Positions 41,216 through 48,813 of a stretch of 64,000 nucleotides of DNA are shown here, in pieces. The DNA is from a virus (lineage: Duplodnaviria; Heunggongvirae; Uroviricota; Caudoviricetes). Every line of letters starts with the position of its first letter. Positions within the stretch are counted from its first letter, which is position 1. Both the position numbers and the translations under genes were made by a program. The DNA lies in IMG/VR virus record IMGVR_UViG_2695420475_000001; one strand, given 5' to 3'. The notes beneath the pieces are model-generated. The model made no database searches. It saw only the letters and a program-made list of their open reading frames with translations, and was not told where the DNA came from.

Positions 41216-42454
41216 CTAGGTTCCCTTCACATTCAGCACCTGGCGAAGCTCCGTGACAACCTCAACCAGAGGGGCGGCGTCACTCATCACGACGTCTATT
41301 GGCTTGTAGCAGGAAGGGATCTCGTCAATCCATTCCTCGCCGTGGCGGTACTCGATGCCTTGCATCTGGTCGGCCAGGTCTTCAAGGGTGAAGAGTTCCT
41401 TCGCCTTGGTGCGAGAGAATCGCCTCCCGGCACCGTGCGGTGCAGAGAACAGGCCATCCTTGTTGCCCCGACCCCGGACCACATAGGAGCGTGTCCCCAT
41501 CGAGCCAGGGATAAGTCCCAGCTTCCCCTCTGACGCATCGATAGCGCCCTTCCGGGTCAGCCATACCTTCCGCCCATCGATCTCAGTCTCAACCGTGTAG
41601 TTGTGGTGACAGTTCACGCGGTCGATCTCGACGCGCTGCGTTTGCACTCCAAGCCAATTCGCGAACACCTGGACGTAGCGGTCCATCATCTCGGCACGGT
41701 TCTCGTAGGCGAACTTTTGTGCCCACTGCAGATCCTTGATATAGCGATCGAACTCAGCGGTCCCCTCAGTGAGGTAAGCAAGATCCCGATTCGGCAAACG
41801 AAATTGAGGAGCGGCCTCGCCTGAGCACTTCTGTAGGTACTCATAGCGCGCAACGGCTACCTTAATGTGGCGCTGAGCGATCTTGTTGCCCACGCCCCTA
41901 CTTCCCGAGTGCAGGAACAGCCACACAGTATCTTCCAGGTCGACACACAGCTCGATGAAATGGTTACCGCCACCAAGTGAGCCCAACTGCTCCATCCACT
42001 TCGGGGAGTGAGACAGGTCTACATCCAGCTCGTTCTGAAGCCGGATGAGGCCCTCAATCCGATTACGTGTGAACGGGAACCGCTTAGTGTCCGAGTTATA
42101 GTTGCCTGGCGACAACGGGATTGCACCCTCGATGGCCACGCGCAAATCGGGCAGGCGGGGCATATCAGCCAACAGGGCGTCATCCATGATGTTGGCCCAC
42201 TCGTAGCGGGTCTTCACCGCGATCATGCCGCAGCCGATGTCCACGCCAACAGCGGCAGGAATCACAGCCCCCACGGTGGGGATGACCGTTCCAACAGCTG
42301 AACCCTTGCCACTGTGCGCATCAGGCATCAGCGCCATGTGCGGGTAGATGAACGGCAGCGAGGCCGTCTCCTTAGCCTGATCGATCGTCGTGTAGTCGAT
42401 CTCTGAGGCGAACGAGATGATGTTGTCACCAATGCGCTGGCTCAATTCCTTCAT
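41216..42454 (-). CDS. rtcB: RNA-splicing ligase RtcB
   Basis: 412 aa with conserved RtcB His/Cys metal-ligand motifs (DAHSGKGS, HNH, GAGR). Confidence 0.9.
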   Translation of the reverse strand: MKELSQRIGDNIISFASEIDYTTIDQAKETASLPFIYPHMALMPDAHSGKGSAVGTVIPTVGAVIPAAVGVDIGCGMIAVKTRYEWANIMDDALLADMPRLPDLRVAIEGAIPLSPGNYNSDTKRFPFTRNRIEGLIRLQNELDVDLSHSPKWMEQLGSLGGGNHFIELCVDLEDTVWLFLHSGSRGVGNKIAQRHIKVAVARYEYLQKCSGEAAPQFRLPNRDLAYLTEGTAEFDRYIKDLQWAQKFAYENRAEMMDRYVQVFANWLGVQTQRVEIDRVNCHHNYTVETEIDGRKVWLTRKGAIDASEGKLGLIPGSMGTRSYVVRGRGNKDGLFSAPHGAGRRFSRTKAKELFTLEDLADQMQGIEYRHGEEWIDEIPSCYKPIDVVMSDAAPLVEVVTELRQVLNVKGT

Positions 42455-42524: not shown

Positions 42525-42608
42525 CTTCGAGTAGTCCATGCGGGAACCAAACCCGCACCAACACCTTGAGAGGGTGGTGTGCTCTCACTACACCAATGGA
42601 CCTTAGGG

Positions 42609-42947
42609 CTATTGCTCAACCCAATTGCCGGATTCACGAACCTCTGTCTTGAGGTTAACCGGCCACATATCACGCTCCACTTGGGCGCGTTGTAGGTCTT
42701 CGCGACCGACCTGACGCTTCACCCATAGTTGGAACTTCGGTGAGTTCGCCATTCGCCTGAACGCAGACTGCTTGTTCTGCAGCTGGCTACGCTCCTCGCG
42801 TGACTCACCCACTGCGCCAGACGGCTCATGCGTGATGCGCACACCCGTTTCGCGCTTGTTCTGGTTTTGACCGCCTTTGCCCCCAGATCGGAATGTGTCC
42901 ACACGACAATCCGAGAGGGTGACAGACAGTACCCGTTCTCTACTCAC
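42609..42947 (-). CDS. GGQ-domain peptide-release-factor-like protein (PrfH/ArfB-like)
   Basis: DTFRSGGKGGQNQNKRETGVRITHEPSG matches the class-I release-factor GGQ catalytic loop; 112 aa; adjacent to rtcB. Confidence 0.7.
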   Translation of the reverse strand: MSRERVLSVTLSDCRVDTFRSGGKGGQNQNKRETGVRITHEPSGAVGESREERSQLQNKQSAFRRMANSPKFQLWVKRQVGREDLQRAQVERDMWPVNLKTEVRESGNWVEQ

Positions 42948-43021
42948 GTCAAGTCGACCGGATTTGAACCGGCGTCCCCCGCCGTGACAGGGCGGTGCTT
43001 TAGACCTCTAAGCTACGACTC
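42948..43021 (-). tRNA. tRNA-Asp (anticodon GTC)
   Basis: Manually folded cloverleaf; anticodon stem CCGCC/GGCGG, T-loop TTCAAAT. Confidence 0.75.
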
Positions 43022-43129
43022 GAAAGAACGTTTGCCCCCAGTGGTTTTCGAGGCCACCGGGGCAGGTACGAACAACCTGAGCCAACTTTCTGGGAATCAA
43101 ACCCTGGAGCTGCTTGGCCAAAACTCCCG

Positions 43130-43201
43130 TGGAGAAACGGGGAATCGAACCCCGGACTCTGGTGTGCAAAACCAGTGCTTTACCAACTAAGCTATGTCCC
43201 C
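43130..43201 (-). tRNA. tRNA-Ala (anticodon TGC) with G3:U70
   Basis: Cloverleaf; acceptor GGGGACA/TTTCTCC including the G3·U70 Ala identity pair. Confidence 0.7.
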
Positions 43202-43227
43202 ATATTGGCCCGGAAAGGACGTTGTTA

Positions 43228-43656
43228 ATGAAGCTCAACCGCATTACAGAACTCGTAGCCAACACGACCGGCTTCGACGGCCTATCACTCCAGATCATTA
43301 AGCACGTGGATGCCGTCGAGATCTTGGACTCTGGTGTCCTCAGAGTTATCTCACGCTCAGTCCACGATGACGCTACTTGCGAAGACAGCCTCTACCTAGC
43401 ACCGGGCGAATGGAAGTCGTTCGCTCGTAGGGGCACGACAGTAGTGATCGAGTCCGAGGACCAGGTCTTTGACTTTGAGATGGGCCTCTCGACCGAAGAA
43501 TGCGTCAACTTCATCGCCGCCTATTTCGAGCGAGCGGACGGTTACGCTCCAGGCAATGCGCGCGACCTCGCCCGCGAGATAGTCTACAACCAACCGGTTG
43601 GTGTTGTGTACGGTTCCAACCACGTCAAGTTTAGGTTCGTTTCAAGCCCGAACTAG
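43228..43656 (+). CDS. Hypothetical protein embedded in the tRNA array (opposite strand)
   Basis: In-frame Met within ORF 43114..43656, preceded by GGAAAGGA. Confidence 0.35.
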   Translation: MKLNRITELVANTTGFDGLSLQIIKHVDAVEILDSGVLRVISRSVHDDATCEDSLYLAPGEWKSFARRGTTVVIESEDQVFDFEMGLSTEECVNFIAAYFERADGYAPGNARDLAREIVYNQPVGVVYGSNHVKFRFVSSPN

Positions 43657-43680
43657 TCGCCCAGGATCAAATTACTCGCG

Positions 43681-43754
43681 AGCCGCATCGAGGCCTCGAA
43701 CCCCGTACCTCTTCGTTACTAAGGAAGCGCTCTAACCTGGTGAGCTAATGCGGC
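43681..43754 (-). tRNA. tRNA-Thr-like (anticodon AGT, unusual A34)
   Basis: Cloverleaf closely resembling bacterial tRNA-Thr; anticodon loop TTAGTAA. Confidence 0.55.
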
Positions 43755-43758
43755 AAAG

Positions 43759-43829
43759 TACCTTGCGAGAGAATTGAACTCCCATCCTCGGGGTGTAAAC
43801 CCGGTGCCCTTCCGTTGGACGAGCAAGGC
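43759..43829 (-). tRNA. tRNA-Val (anticodon TAC)
   Basis: Cloverleaf; loop TTTACAC. Confidence 0.7.
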
Positions 43830-43954
43830 ATATTGAGCTTTTGGTTGAGGGTGCCAATGCTGCAGCGAGAGGTCCCTGGCGGATGCTCTATCCGCGCACA
43901 AACCTCCGGCGACAACCGAAGTCTCCACCGTAGGGTCGCCCATCCCAAGGCGTC

Positions 43955-44029
43955 GAACGAGTGACCAGATTCGAACTGGCACGACCTGTTTGGAAGACAG
44001 GGATGCTAAACCGTTAAACATCACACTCG
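43955..44029 (-). tRNA. tRNA-Gly (anticodon TCC)
   Basis: Cloverleaf; loop CTTCCAA, T-loop TTCGAAT. Confidence 0.7.
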
Positions 44030-44077
44030 CTTGAGTATGCAGATCGTAGGCTTCAAGGGTACGAAATGCGTACTGTT

Positions 44078-44148
44078 GCACGACCGACAGGAGTTGAACC
44101 TGCTTCCACGCGGCTTAGGAGGCCGTTGGTCTGTCCGAGTTACAGTCG
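44078..44148 (-). tRNA. tRNA-Arg (anticodon CCT), poorly formed D-arm
   Basis: Acceptor, anticodon and T arms fold; the D-arm is weak. Confidence 0.5.
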
Positions 44149-44155
44149 TAAGTTG

Positions 44156-44227
44156 GTAAGCCCGCAGTGAGTTGAACACTGGTTTCCGCCTTATCAGAGC
44201 GGTGTCCTAACCATTGGACGACGAGCT
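44156..44227 (-). tRNA. tRNA-Ile (anticodon GAT)
   Basis: Cloverleaf; loop CTGATAA. Confidence 0.7.
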
Positions 44228-44228
44228 A

Positions 44229-44301
44229 GTGGGTCTTACAGGGCTCGAACCTGTGTCCCCGGATTAAGAGTCCGGTGCTAATGCCATCTCAGCTAAAAAC
44301 C
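44229..44301 (-). tRNA. tRNA-Lys (anticodon CTT)
   Basis: Cloverleaf; loop CTCTTAA. Confidence 0.75.
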
Positions 44302-44314
44302 CGAGTTTTTGTGA

Positions 44315-44386
44315 GTCCACCCGGCAGGACTCGAACCTGCGTCTATGGATTAAAAGTCCACAGCTAAACCATCTCAGCTACGGGAG
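44315..44386 (-). tRNA. tRNA-Lys (anticodon TTT)
   Basis: Cloverleaf; loop CTTTTAA. Confidence 0.75.
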
Positions 44387-44957
44387 GGTACGTGACCTGG
44401 GGGTCGAACCCAGACTTTGCAGGGTTTGAGCCTGCTGCTTCTTCCTGATTGAGCGAGTCACGCTTGCTTTTCATATAATCTCTGTGCCGCTTCGCATTGC
44501 CCGCGCGACAGATTTCGCACCGGCACCCGTTCTGGTACGCCTTACGCTCGCCACAAATCGCCGGACCAATTTTGTATGGTCCGCGAACGGTGCCGCCGCG
44601 TCGAGCCGCATTCCGGGCGTCACTCCACACTCGCTGAGCCTCTTGACATACGCTGCACAAGCACTTGGCCTTTGACCATGCATACGTCGAGCCATGGGTG
44701 ATTCCCGTGTTTTCGACCGCTGTTTTGACTCGATGATGCTCACGACAAAGCAGCTGACACTTCTCAATCTCCGCGAGATGCAAGGGATTCTTGAGATTCA
44801 GGCATTTACCCGGCTCGAAACTCTTGGTTGCCGGGTCGATGTGGTCTATCTCTAAATCGTCTTCGGTACCACACTCCACACACTTACCACCCAGATAGGC
44901 AACGACTTCGGCTCGCTTACGGTGGTAGTACGCGATCTGATATTCAGCATTAGACAT
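44364..44957 (-). CDS. HNH homing endonuclease
   Basis: GKCVECGTEDDLEIDHIDP...N...LLCREHH motif. The 3' end overlaps two tRNA genes. Confidence 0.7.
   Translation of the reverse strand: MSNAEYQIAYYHRKRAEVVAYLGGKCVECGTEDDLEIDHIDPATKSFEPGKCLNLKNPLHLAEIEKCQLLCREHHRVKTAVENTGITHGSTYAWSKAKCLCSVCQEAQRVWSDARNAARRGGTVRGPYKIGPAICGERKAYQNGCRCEICRAGNAKRHRDYMKSKRDSLNQEEAAGSNPAKSGFDPQVTYPPVAEMV
44388..44462 (-). tRNA. Type-I tRNA with Leu anticodon CAA (atypical: short variable arm)
   Basis: Perfect anticodon stem GCAGG/CCTGC, loop CTCAAAC; 5-nt variable loop; D-arm paralogous to the 45004..45077 tRNA. Confidence 0.55.
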
Positions 44958-45003
44958 TATATTCTATTGTCCCACCGCATATTTCGATCATGTGGGTGAT
45001 ACG

Positions 45004-45077
45004 TAGCCCCGGAGTGATTCGAACACTCACTTGCTGGTTTCTAAGACCAGTGCTTCTGCCAGTTGAGCGACGGAGCC
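45004..45077 (-). tRNA. Type-I tRNA with Leu anticodon TAG (atypical: short variable arm)
   Basis: Anticodon stem CTGGT/ACCAG, loop CTTAGAA, canonical T-arm GAGTG-TTCGAAT-CACTC. Confidence 0.55.
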
Positions 45078-45134
45078 ATTGTGCCGATATTGCCGCGTCG
45101 GCTTTACGGTGACTCCTACTCACCGAGCGCGTCG

Positions 45135-45206
45135 AGACGAAGGCCGGGATCGAACCGGCGTGGGTCAGGGTTGCAGCCTGCCAGCTAGCCACTCACTCAC
45201 TTCGCC
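45135..45206 (-). tRNA. tRNA-Cys (anticodon GCA)
   Basis: Cloverleaf; loop CTGCAAC; 3-bp D-stem. Confidence 0.55.
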
Positions 45207-45216
45207 TTAAGCCGCT

Positions 45217-45381
45217 ATTCTGCAGCGGGTGCTGCCTTCTTCGCCGGGGCCTTCTTGGCTACCGGCTTCTCTTCCACTGCGTAGTGGAAGTCCTCAAGGG
45301 CATCCATACGGTCAATCAGGTCGTTTACCGCCTTGACGATGTCGATATGGGCGATGCCCGTGCGCAGCTTGTCAGTCATTG
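45217..45381 (-). CDS. Small basic protein with Lys/Ala/Pro-rich tail (54 aa)
   Basis: MTDKLRTGIAHIDIVKAVNDLIDRMDALEDFHYAVEEKPVAKKAPAKKAAPAAE; not in the ORF track because it is under 60 aa. Confidence 0.3.
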
Positions 45382-45929
45382 GTCGCCTCTGCTAGTCGTT
45401 TTCTGTAGTCGCGCTTACGATTTCTTGCTGCTAACCGACAGAGGCCGCAGCGGCACCCCCATCGGTCATACATTGTGCTTGTCCCATGGCGGGTTGGCCG
45501 CGTGCCATGCGTGAGCGGCATTTGGGCTGTGGTCTTGTCGCGATGACACCTCTTACAGAGGGGTTGACACTTCCTCAGCTCTGCCTGGAGTCGCGGCTCG
45601 GCCCAACTCCATATTCGGTGTGATGATTTCTCCATCGGATCGATGTGGTCGATCTCGAGTTGCCCAGTCGCACCGCAACTCACACACTTTCTGCCCTCAA
45701 AGTACCTAGCACGCCTTGCGGACTGCCGCAGTCGTTCGTATTCTCGTCGGCGGACAGGATCTTTGATTGGCATGTAACCCCTGTTTATATTGGGGTGACC
45801 GGACGGTACTGACCCGTCATCCTCGCGGTCACATCGCGAGATTCTCAACCTTTGAACTACGGTCACAGCCCCGTTGACAGGATTCGAACCTGCATGCGTT
45901 GCGCCTTCGTAAGGCGGTGGGCGCTCCAT
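45372..45929 (-). CDS. HNH homing endonuclease (probable start 45773)
   Basis: KCVSCGATGQLEIDHIDP...CKRCH motif. The N-terminal extension of the ORF would overlap tRNA-His, so the true start is likely at the MPIKDP Met. Confidence 0.7.
   Translation of the reverse strand: MERPPPYEGATHAGSNPVNGAVTVVQRLRISRCDREDDGSVPSGHPNINRGYMPIKDPVRRREYERLRQSARRARYFEGRKCVSCGATGQLEIDHIDPMEKSSHRIWSWAEPRLQAELRKCQPLCKRCHRDKTTAQMPLTHGTRPTRHGTSTMYDRWGCRCGLCRLAARNRKRDYRKRLAEATND
45794..45866 (-). tRNA. tRNA-His (anticodon GTG) with non-canonical T-loop
   Basis: Good acceptor, D, 6-bp anticodon and T stems; T-loop GTCAGTA lacks the TTC consensus. Confidence 0.55.
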
Positions 45930-45943
45930 TGCCCAACAACGGG
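45869..45943 (-). tRNA. tRNA-Arg (anticodon ACG)
   Basis: Cloverleaf; loop TTACGAA; D-stem GGGC/GCCC. Confidence 0.65.
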
Positions 45944-46080
45944 AGCAGGCGGTTTAACGTGGAGTGCCCAGCACGGAGCAGTTTTTCGTGATGTCTCAAC
46001 ACGGATGGTTCTTCCAGTTGTGAACCAACAACATTCATGGGCCAGTTTCTACCTCAGCCGTGTACTGGCAACCCTCGTCC

Positions 46081-46155
46081 GTGGCGGGTACCGGATTTGA
46101 ACCGGTGGTCTCAAGGTTATGAGCCTTGCGAGATGGCCGAGCTTCTCTAACCCGC
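46081..46155 (-). tRNA. tRNA-Met (anticodon CAT)
   Basis: Cloverleaf; loop CTCATAA; A1·C72 mismatch. Confidence 0.7.
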
Positions 46156-46281
46156 TATGTATGGTGACTCATTCCGACAGGACAGTTCGTCGCCTACCGT
46201 ATCCGCGCGAGTCAACGCGACCTTTTACGTGGAGTGCCCAGCTTTTCACCAGTAGCTGTGGAACCTGGTTTCCCTTACACG

Positions 46282-46355
46282 CCGACTCTCCCCGAATCGA
46301 ACGGGGGCGCACCGGGCTTCAACCGGTCGCTCTTACCTAACTGAGCTAAGAGTCG
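46282..46355 (-). tRNA. tRNA-Phe (anticodon GAA)
   Basis: Cloverleaf; D-arm GCTC/GAGC, loop TTGAAGC. Confidence 0.8.
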
Positions 46356-46648
46356 ATTGTTAGAGGCTGAGAGTACACCCGCTATCGAGAACCTTTCGCA
46401 GCATTATGGATTCGCTGCTTCTCCAGGCCATCCCTGACCTAGTTCTCACGCCTGGTCCGTTACCGTGAACCACTCGTTATGCCGAAAGCTACTCTGCGGC
46501 TTTCCCTTCGCGATGAGATGGCCGTCTCACTGCTGCAGTACTTGCCTACAAACCGCACTCACCTTGCGGGACTATTGTGCGGCCCAGATTCCCGAGGGTC
46601 TGGGATTAAGGCGCTTTTGCTCCTCGGCAGGGGAAGGACTTTTGCTTT

Positions 46649-46721
46649 TTATTGACGACGGGACTTGAACCCGCACATCCAGTTTCCAATAACTGGTGAC
46701 CTACCGTTGGTCTACGTCATT
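46649..46721 (-). tRNA. tRNA-Pro (anticodon TGG), copy 1
   Basis: Cloverleaf; D-stem GACC/GGTC, loop ATTGGAA. Confidence 0.55.
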
Positions 46722-47175
46722 CTCACAGCGGAGAATGATTTGACTAGAGACGTGCTTCCCCATGAAGTTCCGAACCCTTTTGGGGCACAGAATGCTTCAC
46801 GCCTCTCGTGCTTTCGCCTGGCGGGGCTAATTACACTCTCTCTCAACCGCATTGCGAGCCGTCGCCCGACGCGAGATCGATCATGGAACACGCCCTTGCT
46901 TGCGAGGCTCAGACTCAGTTCCTTCCGTTCCACAGGGCGCTTGTTCGATAGCCTTTTCACACGCACGTACGTGATGGTGTCCTCAGCACTTTGCCGTTGG
47001 ACGGGGCGTAACTCGCAACCTGGCAGCCATCACTGACTGCTCAAGGATTGGATTGCATGGATTGCCCTTGCGGGTGGTGGGTTGTCACCCCACCTTTCAC
47101 CACCTTGCGGTGGCTTATGGGCCATGCCCCGAATGTCTTAACTATATCTCCCACAACAGAGTTCGTGTGGGTGAG

Positions 47176-47258
47176 CGGAGAGGCAGGTATTCGAAACCTA
47201 CTGCGAACAGCGCTCCGGTTAGCAACCGGGCCTAGTCACCTAACTAGTTGCGCTCTCC
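47176..47258 (-). tRNA. tRNA-Ser (anticodon GCT), class II with long variable arm
   Basis: Loop TTGCTAA, variable stem GCG/CGC, T-loop TTCGAAT. Confidence 0.6.
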
Positions 47259-47338
47259 AAAATCCACCCCTTCGGCGTCGACACTGGACTCGACGCACCT
47301 GTATTCACTCTTAGCCATGGCCAGGCGGGTGGAGAACG

Positions 47339-47423
47339 AGGAAGGTAGAGGAATCGAACCCCCGAGTTTTCAGGCTCGCCCCGGTATTCGACGCCGGTTG
47401 CCGACCATTCAGCGGTGCCTTCC
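47339..47423 (-). tRNA. tRNA-Ser (anticodon CGA), class II
   Basis: Loop GTCGAAT in stem CCGG/CCGG; variable arm CGAG-loop-CTCG. Confidence 0.55.
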
Positions 47424-47503
47424 ATATGCCCCATTTTGATAACGCAACTGGAGCGGCTGCGGGCAGTCAACTCATGGCAGGTACCTACCGGTTGACTCAA
47501 AAG

Positions 47504-47576
47504 CTGATGACCCTGGATTCGAACCAAGACCTACGTGGTTCAGAGCCACGTGTGCTGCCGGTTACACCAATCATCA
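47504..47576 (-). tRNA. tRNA-Gln (anticodon CTG)
   Basis: Cloverleaf; loop CTCTGAA. Confidence 0.75.
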
Positions 47577-47640
47577 ATGCTGAGACTGGCCTTGCGGGCG
47601 GGGGAACGTTTCTGCTTGCCGCAAGCCTTCAGTTCGTTCC

Positions 47641-47717
47641 ACACCAGTCTCATTGTCTCGCCGTCAGGAGTCGAACCTGCACACCCGAAGGAGCAGATTT
47701 ACAGTCTGCGTTGATCG
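47641..47717 (-). tRNA. tRNA-Tyr (anticodon GTA)
   Basis: Anticodon arm GCAGACTGTAAATCTGC identical to E. coli tRNA-Tyr; variable arm with TTCG tetraloop; D-arm weak. Confidence 0.55.
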
Positions 47718-47769
47718 CCTATTCGCGACGAGATTGGAGCCAGTGCTCGGCTTCTCGCCGATTCGCATG

Positions 47770-47842
47770 CACACACTGACATGGCTGGCTTGGAAGGATT
47801 CGAACCTACACCTCGCGAGTTAACAGCTCGCTGCTCTACCAA
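47770..47842 (-). tRNA. tRNA-Asn (anticodon GTT)
   Basis: Cloverleaf; loop CTGTTAA. Confidence 0.7.
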
Positions 47843-47932
47843 TTGAGCTACAGGCCAAGAGCGAGGGTGGCCAGTGTCAGCGCGCTTTCTGACCTGTGCG
47901 ACCCTCTTGCCCGTCCTGCTTAGAGATGAGAC

Positions 47933-47971
47933 GGAGCCGAAAACACCCGTACGGTCATCATACGTGATGAC
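47933..47971 (-). terminator. Perfect 7-bp hairpin (GTCATCA-TACG-TGATGAC) with a downstream U-run on the minus strand, directly after tRNA-Pro
   Basis: Inverted repeat followed in minus sense by CGTACGGGTGTTTTCGG. Confidence 0.35.
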
Positions 47972-47976
47972 CAACG

Positions 47977-48051
47977 TCTGCCAGGCGCGATTTGAACACG
48001 CGATCTCCTGGACCCAAACCAGGCGGGATGGCCAAACTTCCCTACAAGCAG
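47977..48051 (-). tRNA. tRNA-Pro (anticodon TGG), copy 2
   Basis: Cloverleaf; loop TTTGGGT. Confidence 0.75.
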
Positions 48052-48742
48052 ATGATGGACGACACGGCCCAGGTACGGCACCTCAGGTCGGATCCTTTTT
48101 ATCGGAACCTACTGCGGGATTACCCTGCCATCCATATGGCCACCGGCATCCCGATGGCCGCGCGGAGATGTCTCTCCACATTCCCCGTACGACCGACGCT
48201 TTCCTGGAGCTACCTGTACTTGCGCATGTGGTCTGACAGCCGGGGCCACACTGACTAACGAGGATGTTCTCCCTTTGCACTACCGGCAGCCTACGCCGCC
48301 AGTCGGGGCTCGAACCCGAATCTTCCTCTCGTGGAGCTGCCCGGAATTGAACCGGGATGTTACGTGACTTGTCACAGTCTTCTACGTGCGTAGTCCACCG
48401 ATTGGGTCGGTTGGGGTGGACGCCTGTCCGAATCGAGACCTCAGACTCTCGACCGATCTTCCAGCACAGTTTGTCGCCTGAGAGCTGGTCATTGCGAGTT
48501 CCCCGTATTCGCGACGGTGGATTGGTAAACGGAACGGGTAAACCGTTGTACCCCACCGGACTACGCAGCTAGGGCGTAGTCGGACTGAGCAGAAGCTGCA
48601 GTTATTGTGGTTGCACTGTTACGGGCGTTGCGGGCCCGGCACGCTTCTCAGTAAGTTGACACGCAATCGAATACCTGTCAGCCCCATTAAAGTATCTATA
48701 TCTCTATGGAGTTTTCAAATGTCATGCCACACAGAGGCATTG

Positions 48743-48813
48743 CACGGGCGGAGAGAATCGAACTCCCACTAACGGGTTTGGAATCCGTTGTCCTACCTTT
48801 GGACCACGCCCAT
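48743..48813 (-). tRNA. tRNA-Trp (anticodon CCA)
   Basis: Cloverleaf similar to bacterial tRNA-Trp; loop TTCCAAA. Confidence 0.7.

Follow-up and report, generated by a model that had tools for sequence, protein, structure and literature searches.

The two leucine tRNA genes

The stretch of DNA analysed here is a 64-kb window (positions 1-64000) from IMG/VR virus record IMGVR_UViG_2695420475_000001, and the elements in question are the two leucine tRNA (tRNA-Leu) genes of its tRNA array, with anticodons UAG and CAA. The window is a mycobacteriophage genome of the Mycobacterium abscessus MabI prophage type. Where the sequences align, its identity is 96% with prophiT49-2 and about 93-97% with prophi86-1. 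The Cluster M phages Rey, Bongo, and PegLeg are its more remote relatives. As judged from sequence and predicted fold, both genes are very probably functional class I (short-arm) leucine tRNAs. They are located as follows:

45004..45077, minus strand: tRNA-Leu(UAG), class I; Rfam tRNA model 54.5 bits; ARAGORN call with anticodon tag at 45003-45077
44389..44463, minus strand: tRNA-Leu(CAA), class I; Rfam tRNA model 47.2 bits; ARAGORN call with anticodon caa at 44387-44463

The gathering score of the general Rfam tRNA model is 29. The cloverleaf is the minimum-energy fold of both tRNAs in ViennaRNA, and the ARAGORN drawing agrees with it. Each tRNA has a 7-base-pair (bp) acceptor stem, perfect 5-bp anticodon and T stems, and a 3-bp D stem. 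The variable loop is 5 nucleotides (nt) long in both, AAAGU in the CAA tRNA and CAAGU in the UAG tRNA, and neither contains a long variable arm, defined for class II as a stem-loop of more than 10 nt. The D stem GCU/AGC carries an unpaired C13·A22 in both. The D arm reads GCU-C-AACUGGCAG-A-AGC in the UAG tRNA, with the D loop AACUGGCAG, and GCU-C-AAUCAGGAAG-A-AGC in the CAA tRNA, whose D loop AAUCAGGAAG is one base longer; the segment UC-GCU-C-AA...AGA-AGC-A is common to the two. Both tRNAs also have a G1·U72 wobble and A73, and tRNA-Leu(UAG) does not encode CCA. U8, A14, G18G19, U33, U54U55C56, and A58 are in place in both, with model scores of 47-80 bits. Signs of a pseudogene, namely broken stems, lost invariants, or a low score, were absent from both genes, and the only stem mismatches are G·U pairs. 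The initial annotation had described clean cloverleafs with perfect anticodon stems, 5-nt variable loops, Leu anticodons CAA and UAG, and near-identical D arms; all of this is borne out by ARAGORN, Rfam, and ViennaRNA.

The initial annotation also called the two genes paralogous. Only the D arm is common to them; the overall identity of the CAA and UAG tRNAs is 69%, no higher than the 72-84% with unrelated members of the family described below. A recent duplication was therefore rejected, and the term paralogous is only weakly supported.

A family of class I leucine tRNAs in viruses and chromosomes

The wider distribution of this kind of tRNA was examined with the pattern CCAAN{1,3}GGCAGAGN{29}GTTCRA, which describes the Leu D arm and the class I spacing to the T loop and contains no anticodon; that fixed spacing marks a variable loop of 4-5 nt with U48. 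The pattern was run on IMG/VR and on contigs of one genome per species from GTDB, and the pattern-bearing tRNAs were then typed by ARAGORN. All member counts given here and below are among the matches listed. Every pattern-bearing tRNA has a Leu anticodon, 126 of 126 in IMG/VR and 119 of 119 in GTDB. In both sets together (245) the anticodons are taa 132, caa 45, tag 47, cag 12, gag 6, and aag 3; the IMG/VR set consists of UAA 69, UAG 29, CAA 18, CAG 5, GAG 3, and AAG 2, and the viral and chromosomal spectra are alike. A73 and U48, which lie outside the pattern, are invariant in 239 of 239 parsed members. From 40 diverse members RNAalifold derives the class I cloverleaf, in which 19 of 20 pairs are backed by compensatory changes. 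A tRNA body that is combined with exactly the six Leu anticodons of two codon boxes, and with none besides, can hardly be accounted for other than by leucine identity.

The window alleles differ from the family at two places in and beside the D stem, with C9 and U12-A23 in place of the family's A9 and C12-G23, and the change in the stem is compensated. A second scan found the C9/U12-A23 variant in 14 other IMG/VR tRNAs, all with Leu anticodons. It is thus a recurrent compensated sub-type, which probably reflects a covarying triple of position 9 with the pair 12-23. Since the variant recurs and the overall identity is 69%, the D arm shared by the two window genes is no sign of recent paralogy.

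The first base pair of the acceptor stem also varies within the family. G1·U72 is found in 53% of IMG/VR members compared with 11% of lone chromosomal members, and 88% of the latter have G1-C72. G1·U72 was considered as a Leu-specific phage signature and rejected, because it is common in viral tRNAs of other isotypes too and thus appears to be a general trait of phage tRNAs. In the IMG/VR loci L011-L130 it occurs in 67% of Glu, 41% of Leu, 38% of Val, 31% of Ile, and 26% of Arg tRNAs, and it is near zero in Ala, Asn, Asp, Cys, Phe, Pro, Ser, and Thr tRNAs; in the same loci it is concentrated in the tRNAs of class I synthetases.

In full-text literature searches no paper that explicitly describes class I tRNA-Leu of phages or Actinobacteria came up, with the original Cluster M paper outside their coverage. 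The tRNAscan-SE 2.0 paper and the papers on identity elements are silent on class I tRNA-Leu.

Probable leucine identity of the two tRNAs

Leucine identity in Escherichia coli is determined by A73 together with U8-A14, A15-U48, G18-U55, and G19-C56 (PMC2377443; the results text of that paper prints G19-C56 as 'G19-U56'), and deletion of the variable arm in Aquifex chiefly reduces affinity (PMC2377443). All of these identity nucleotides for leucyl-tRNA synthetase (LeuRS) are present in both window tRNAs, and A15 together with U48, which closes the variable loop, gives the A15-U48 Levitt pair in each. Both also have the Leu-type D arm, with a 3-bp stem, an unpaired 13·22 (C·A), and a loop of A14 A15, 1-3 nt, and G18 G19 N A R.

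A covariance model of class I tRNA-Leu was built from 39 family members with the window sequences excluded. It scores the UAG tRNA at 79.7 bits and the CAA tRNA at 67.7 bits. The best non-Leu tRNA of the array is tRNA-Asn at 53.0 bits, and the rest score 14-48. Such a covariance-model check of the isotype had been called for in the initial annotation, and its outcome favours Leu.

The tRNA-Leu genes of E. coli are long-armed, and class II genes of this type share many features with the window genes. In comparison with class II tRNA-Leu of the E. coli type and with the tRNA-Leu(UAG) of phage T5 (85 nt), the likenesses comprise A73, U8-A14, A15-U48, the position of G18G19, the 3-bp D stem, a D loop of the AAxxGGxAGA form, and independence from the anticodon. 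The differences are the missing long arm, A or C in the short-arm form where class II has G at position 9, and C where class II has G or A at position 13. The D arm layout of the window genes is also that of class II phage Leu tRNAs, such as GCG-G-AAUUGGUAU-A-CGC in Enterococcus phage EFDG1. Many IMG/VR arrays have the class II Leu D arm GCG-R-AA..GGCAG-A-CGC; from this class II layout the window genes differ at positions 9 and 13 only.

Class I tRNA-Leu in host chromosomes

The short-arm form is also a chromosomal one. Among the GTDB loci listed, the class I tRNA-Leu is the sole tRNA within 8 kb of chromosomal contig in 98 of 120, and the genomes are overwhelmingly Actinomycetota. They include Mycobacterium asiaticum and three other Mycobacterium genomes, Nocardia, Rhodococcus, Gordonia, Tsukamurella, Corynebacterium, Arthrobacter, Amycolatopsis, Micromonospora, Bifidobacterium, and a 1.46-Mb acI genome. 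The UAA and CAA genes of Mycobacteriales are near-identical between genera. The UAA-type gene shows synteny across Nocardia and Rhodococcus. Beside the tRNA-Leu(CAA) gene of M. asiaticum lie a thiolase-like gene and a response-regulator/ANTAR gene (PdtaR-like), the second of which is a conserved neighbour in Rhodococcus loci as well.

Phage attachment sites and published data on mycobacterial tRNAs lead to the same form. The attP cores of Cluster J phages match positions 32-75 of the CAA tRNA at 100% identity, in agreement with the 44-bp core shared with the tRNA-Leu-CAA gene of M. smegmatis (PMC10865867). Those 44 bases run from the anticodon loop to the 3' end and so leave no space for a long arm. 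In M. tuberculosis only 'several' Leu tRNAs are long-armed, three by the authors' count (PMC7450476). As the host genus uses class I tRNA-Leu for UUR codons, the host LeuRS would have to charge class I tRNA-Leu.

The window genes resemble the chromosomal genes of Mycobacteriales and other Actinomycetota in most respects. The latter are likewise 74-75 nt long without CCA, with a 5-nt variable loop ending in U48, a 3-bp D stem with C13·A22, a D loop of AA-(1-3 nt)-GGCAG, A73, a Leu anticodon, and a canonical T loop. They differ in having G1-C72, A9, and C12-G23, whereas the window has G1·U72, C9, and U12-A23. The anticodon loop of the window CAA tRNA, CUCAAAC, differs at positions 32 and 38 from that of the M. 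asiaticum host gene, UUCAAAA. The view of the initial annotation that a short-arm tRNA-Leu is anomalous in bacteria is thus unsupported for this host lineage: it is the normal chromosomal UAA/CAA form in Mycobacteriales and other Actinomycetota, and it is common in phage arrays.

Class I tRNA-Leu in phage arrays

The sibling prophages and the Cluster M genomes have tRNA-Leu genes of 75-76 nt annotated at the same position of the array. In blastn the UAG allele aligns ungapped through the variable region to annotated tRNA-Leu genes of Phendrix, Dennebes, KVP40 and its relatives, LP65, and EFDG1. The identity is 84% with Gordonia phage Phendrix and 80-81% with Streptomyces phage Dennebes and Vibrio phage KVP40, which places the UAG allele nearer Phendrix than the sibling prophages. 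The CAA allele had no blastn match in the phage collection. The matched phage tRNA-Leu genes are 73-78 nt long, and the Ser and Tyr genes of the same genomes are 83-90 nt long. Class I tRNA-Leu genes also occur three times in the Bxz1-like phage LRRHood and twice in a Felix-O1-like coliphage, in whose array tRNA-Ser retains the long arm.

Taken over the class I Leu genes of phage arrays in Rey, Bongo, the MabI prophages, LRRHood, Phendrix, Dennebes, KVP40, Lactobacillus phage LP65, EFDG1, and Felixounavirus, the architecture and the invariants are those of the window genes. G1·U72 is frequent in them, and they lie in arrays of many isotypes where Ser and Tyr tRNAs stay long-armed.

Phage Rey also has an annotated tRNA-Ser (GGA; locus L002, 9628-9699, minus strand) that is only 72-74 nt long and has no long arm. 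It is a more real oddity than the Leu genes, as bacterial seryl-tRNA synthetase (SerRS) is thought to need the arm.

The endonuclease-linked cassette

An open reading frame (ORF) for an HNH endonuclease lies between the two Leu genes, and the three genes together form a replacement cassette:

44364..44957, minus strand: HNH endonuclease ORF, 197 amino acids; phrog_4234, E 6.5e-32, residues 3-119
44364..45077, minus strand: replacement cassette tRNA-Leu(UAG) - HNH - tRNA-Leu(CAA), from the three-way alignment with prophiT49-2 and prophi86-1
45372-45776 (ORF to 45929), minus strand: second HNH endonuclease; phrog_4234, E 1.2e-41; Pfam HNH, 25.2 bits

At the same place the sibling prophages have tRNA-Leu(UAG), tRNA-Leu(CAA), and one or more small ORFs, with no HNH gene there. 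In the three-way alignment the identity is 100% through tRNA-Cys and the following spacer and breaks abruptly, exactly at the 5' end of tRNA-Leu(UAG). The window alleles are unlike those of prophiT49-2 and prophi86-1, though the surrounding region is 93-96% identical over the aligned parts. The window Leu genes are new alleles on an HNH-linked cassette that replaces the sibling alleles. A megablast of 44300-45011 against the phage collection gave no near-identical match.

No in-frame stop interrupts the HNH ORF ahead of tRNA-Leu(CAA), so that its final ~32 codons cross that tRNA gene and it terminates inside tRNA-Lys(UUU). Excision of tRNA-Leu(CAA) from the transcript would leave a non-stop HNH mRNA, and the phage encodes its own tmRNA and an RF-1-domain protein.

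The second HNH gene sits between tRNA-Cys and tRNA-His, where prophiT49-2 has none; that prophage has one between tRNA-Phe and tRNA-Met. HNH genes thus fill different array slots in near-identical phages. A specific tie of this HNH family to tRNA-Leu was unsupported, as the six relatives that were found adjoin tRNAs of various isotypes (Asn, Phe, Ile, and Leu).

An endonuclease ORF amid tRNA genes, its presence or absence among close relatives, and a sharp flanking breakpoint are the features of a homing cassette. By analogy, the HNH cassette fits the known pattern of homing endonucleases in phage tRNA clusters and is putatively a homing element. A homing endonuclease, SegB, is located in the tRNA gene cluster of phage T4 (PMC2330249). 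In common with T4 segB and T5 hegA-E, the window has an endonuclease ORF that lies between tRNA genes and overlaps them, is present or absent in relatives, and has its flanks replaced along with it. SegB is a GIY-YIG protein, whereas the window endonuclease belongs to a different family (HNH) and is known here from its sequence. In the annotated tRNA region of T5, HNH genes overlap or abut tRNA genes, and in EFDG1 an HNH gene overlaps a class I tRNA-Leu(TAG).

The surrounding tRNA array

Compared with the prophage records, the window is a circular permutation, with 1-24.8 kb corresponding to 30.7-5.0 kb of prophiT49-2 and 40-52 kb to 68.6-57.1 kb. It therefore spans the attP junction near 29-30 kb and holds no host DNA; flanking host DNA was sought across 1-64000, and the sequence is phage throughout. 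prophiT49-2 is a Cluster MabI prophage with 24 tRNAs and a tmRNA, and its organisation is that of Cluster M phages (PMC9934374). The array of the window and its further features are as follows:

42531..48813, minus strand: tRNA array; 22 tRNAs and a tmRNA by ARAGORN, GOLLD RNA by Rfam
41216-42454, minus strand: RtcB RNA ligase, bordering the array; Pfam 359 bits
42609-42947, minus strand: RF-1-domain (GGQ) protein of 112 amino acids, flanking or interrupting the array
44079-44149, minus strand: sub-threshold tRNA, anticodon CCU (Arg); Rfam 28.9 bits against the gathering score of 29
46364-46807, minus strand: full-length GOLLD RNA; Rfam RF02032, 197.6 bits, E 3.6e-55
47338-47423, minus strand: long-armed tRNA-Ser(cga); ARAGORN at relaxed thresholds only; Rfam tRNA-Sec 25.3 bits, E 0.13
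47655-47732, minus strand: tRNA-Tyr(gta), 78 nt, arm of 11-13 nt

The array is a near-complete set of isotypes with roughly one tRNA per amino acid, and its Leu members are the two genes described above only. The annotations of prophiT49-2, prophi86-1, Rey, and Bongo show this array too. RtcB ligase and the RF-1-domain protein stand beside the array, likewise in Cluster M phages, which suggests functions in tRNA repair and ribosome rescue.

Several members of the array are irregular. In the sub-threshold tRNA the 7-bp acceptor stem is good and the D arm is aberrant, and ARAGORN is silent on it even at relaxed settings; it may be the 23rd tRNA of the array. A further tRNA lies inside GOLLD at 46650-46721 (minus strand), called by ARAGORN as tRNA-?(Gln|Pro) with a 6-nt anticodon loop. 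A putatively corresponding position of the prophi86-1 array is annotated as tRNA-Gln(ttg). tRNA-Ser(cga) has a 2-bp D stem, mismatches, and discriminator U, and may be a degenerate or unusual Ser tRNA. tRNA-Tyr(gta) has a very short arm (about 3 bp and a UUCG loop) and a 2-bp D stem, and Rey, Bongo, and prophiT49-2 have a tRNA-Tyr of this form in their annotations. The statement of the initial annotation that the Ser and Tyr tRNAs of the array have long arms is mostly right: it holds for Tyr with 11-13 nt, but the long-armed Ser tRNA is called only at relaxed ARAGORN thresholds.

Role in the phage and alternative explanations

The short-arm tRNA-Leu is a normal and widespread kind in mycobacteria, their relatives, and many phages. 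The two window genes are hence most likely ordinary working tRNA-Leu genes, not decoys or mischarged tRNAs; among the options offered by the initial annotation, unusual Leu isoacceptors was the right choice, given class I cloverleafs with Leu anticodons. The host LeuRS would already charge the class I architecture routinely, without reading the anticodon or the arm. Of the two phage tRNAs, Leu(UAG) would read the CUN box and Leu(CAA) would read UUG. In 81 ORFs of the window the Leu codons are CUN 85.8%, UUG 12.8%, and UUA 1.4%, and the two tRNAs together would thus serve 98.6% of the phage Leu codons if U34 reads the whole CUN box. Both may form part of the near-complete phage set, to be used when host tRNAs are limiting or damaged. 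The two alleles would have arrived as a cassette around the HNH gene, sharing the compensated D-arm variant.

Some points weigh against this account. Both window alleles are off the family consensus at position 9 (C for A) and at 12-23 (U-A for C-G). Among the matches listed, the chromosomal class I genes of Mycobacteriales are UAA and CAA with one lone CAG (Nocardia), and UAG does not occur among them, so that no class I gene of the host has been demonstrated to match the phage UAG isoacceptor. What is said of host-type genes was drawn from Mycobacterium species other than M. abscessus and from genera close to Mycobacterium. The taxonomic proportions among the matches listed are not quantitative.

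If the genes were decoys, mischarged or non-aminoacylated tRNA-like RNAs, or pseudogenes, the missing long arm and the lack of an encoded CCA would be accounted for. However, the stems are all intact, every invariant of the 239-member family is present, the family-model scores are high, and the family anticodons among the matches listed are exactly the six Leu types. By the established identity rules, only LeuRS, SerRS, and alanyl-tRNA synthetase (AlaRS) disregard the anticodon, and other synthetases read it; SerRS requires a long variable arm, and neither window tRNA has G3·U70, the mark for AlaRS. This explanation is very improbable, and nothing supports either the mischarged or the decoy tRNAs that the initial annotation had raised.

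Escape from host nucleases, another of its suggestions, has been described for the tRNAs of phage T5, where anticodon-loop changes evade anticodon nucleases; such evasion is not needed to explain the short-arm structure. A related proposal supplements the reading of the genes as normal Leu tRNAs and does not replace it: the short arm, especially in the CUN-reading UAG tRNA, may be kept as a poorer substrate for host tRNA toxins that recognise long arms. In vitro, MenT3 of M. tuberculosis modifies four long-armed tRNA-Ser and, weakly, one long-armed tRNA-Leu, and its authors name the long arm as a possible determinant, but they also say that the arm cannot be the sole determinant (PMC7450476). 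MenT toxins may act on phage tRNAs, as another study suggests (PMC10435456). The RtcB ligase and RF-1-domain genes adjoining the array and the absence of UAG from the chromosomal Mycobacteriales members listed are consistent with the proposal. On the other hand, the hosts use the same architecture, so that an arms race is unneeded, the viral and chromosomal anticodon spectra are similar among the matches listed, and the tRNA-Ser and tRNA-Tyr of the same phages are still long-armed. Toxin evasion as a reason for the short arm is therefore quite unlikely.

Slightly less improbable, though still unlikely, is that the HNH endonuclease targets the conserved D-arm DNA of class I tRNA-Leu genes, with C9/U12-A23 protecting the cassette alleles and homing driving the allele replacement. 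The breakpoint at the 5' end of tRNA-Leu(UAG) is sharp, relatives that are 96% identical differ in having or lacking the HNH gene, and the same rare compensated change, found in 2 of 40 aligned family members, occurs in both flanking alleles. The EFDG1 HNH gene over a class I tRNA-Leu(TAG), the T5 HNH genes at tRNA genes, and the placement of SegB in the T4 cluster (PMC2330249) point the same way. Against it, the variant is present in 14 other IMG/VR tRNA-Leu genes, and only one such locus (L271) has an HNH relative detected by phmmer, which abuts tRNA-Phe. The six HNH relatives adjoin Asn, Phe, Ile, and Leu tRNAs and not Leu specifically, and a conserved base triple would yield the same joint change at 9 and 12-23. 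The two proposals can be joined into one: loss of the arm, with features such as G1·U72, would remove a handle for toxins and keep LeuRS recognition, favouring short-arm Leu tRNAs in phage arrays and their exchange between phages on endonuclease-linked cassettes, and the C9/U12-A23 D arm of this cassette would double as immunity to the cassette's own HNH. We consider this combined scenario doubtful, to the same degree as toxin evasion by itself.

Significance of the class I lineage

The two genes of the window can be annotated as ordinary tRNA-Leu. More generally, a Leu anticodon without a long arm does not mark a tRNA of Actinomycetota or phages as a pseudogene, a decoy, or a recoding tRNA, and this caution for annotation and screening follows from the existence of a large, well-conserved class I tRNA-Leu lineage. 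The lineage is in keeping with published work in which bacterial LeuRS recognises A73 and the core formed by the D and T loops, not the arm. A short descriptive note on it might help, and would leave current understanding unchanged.

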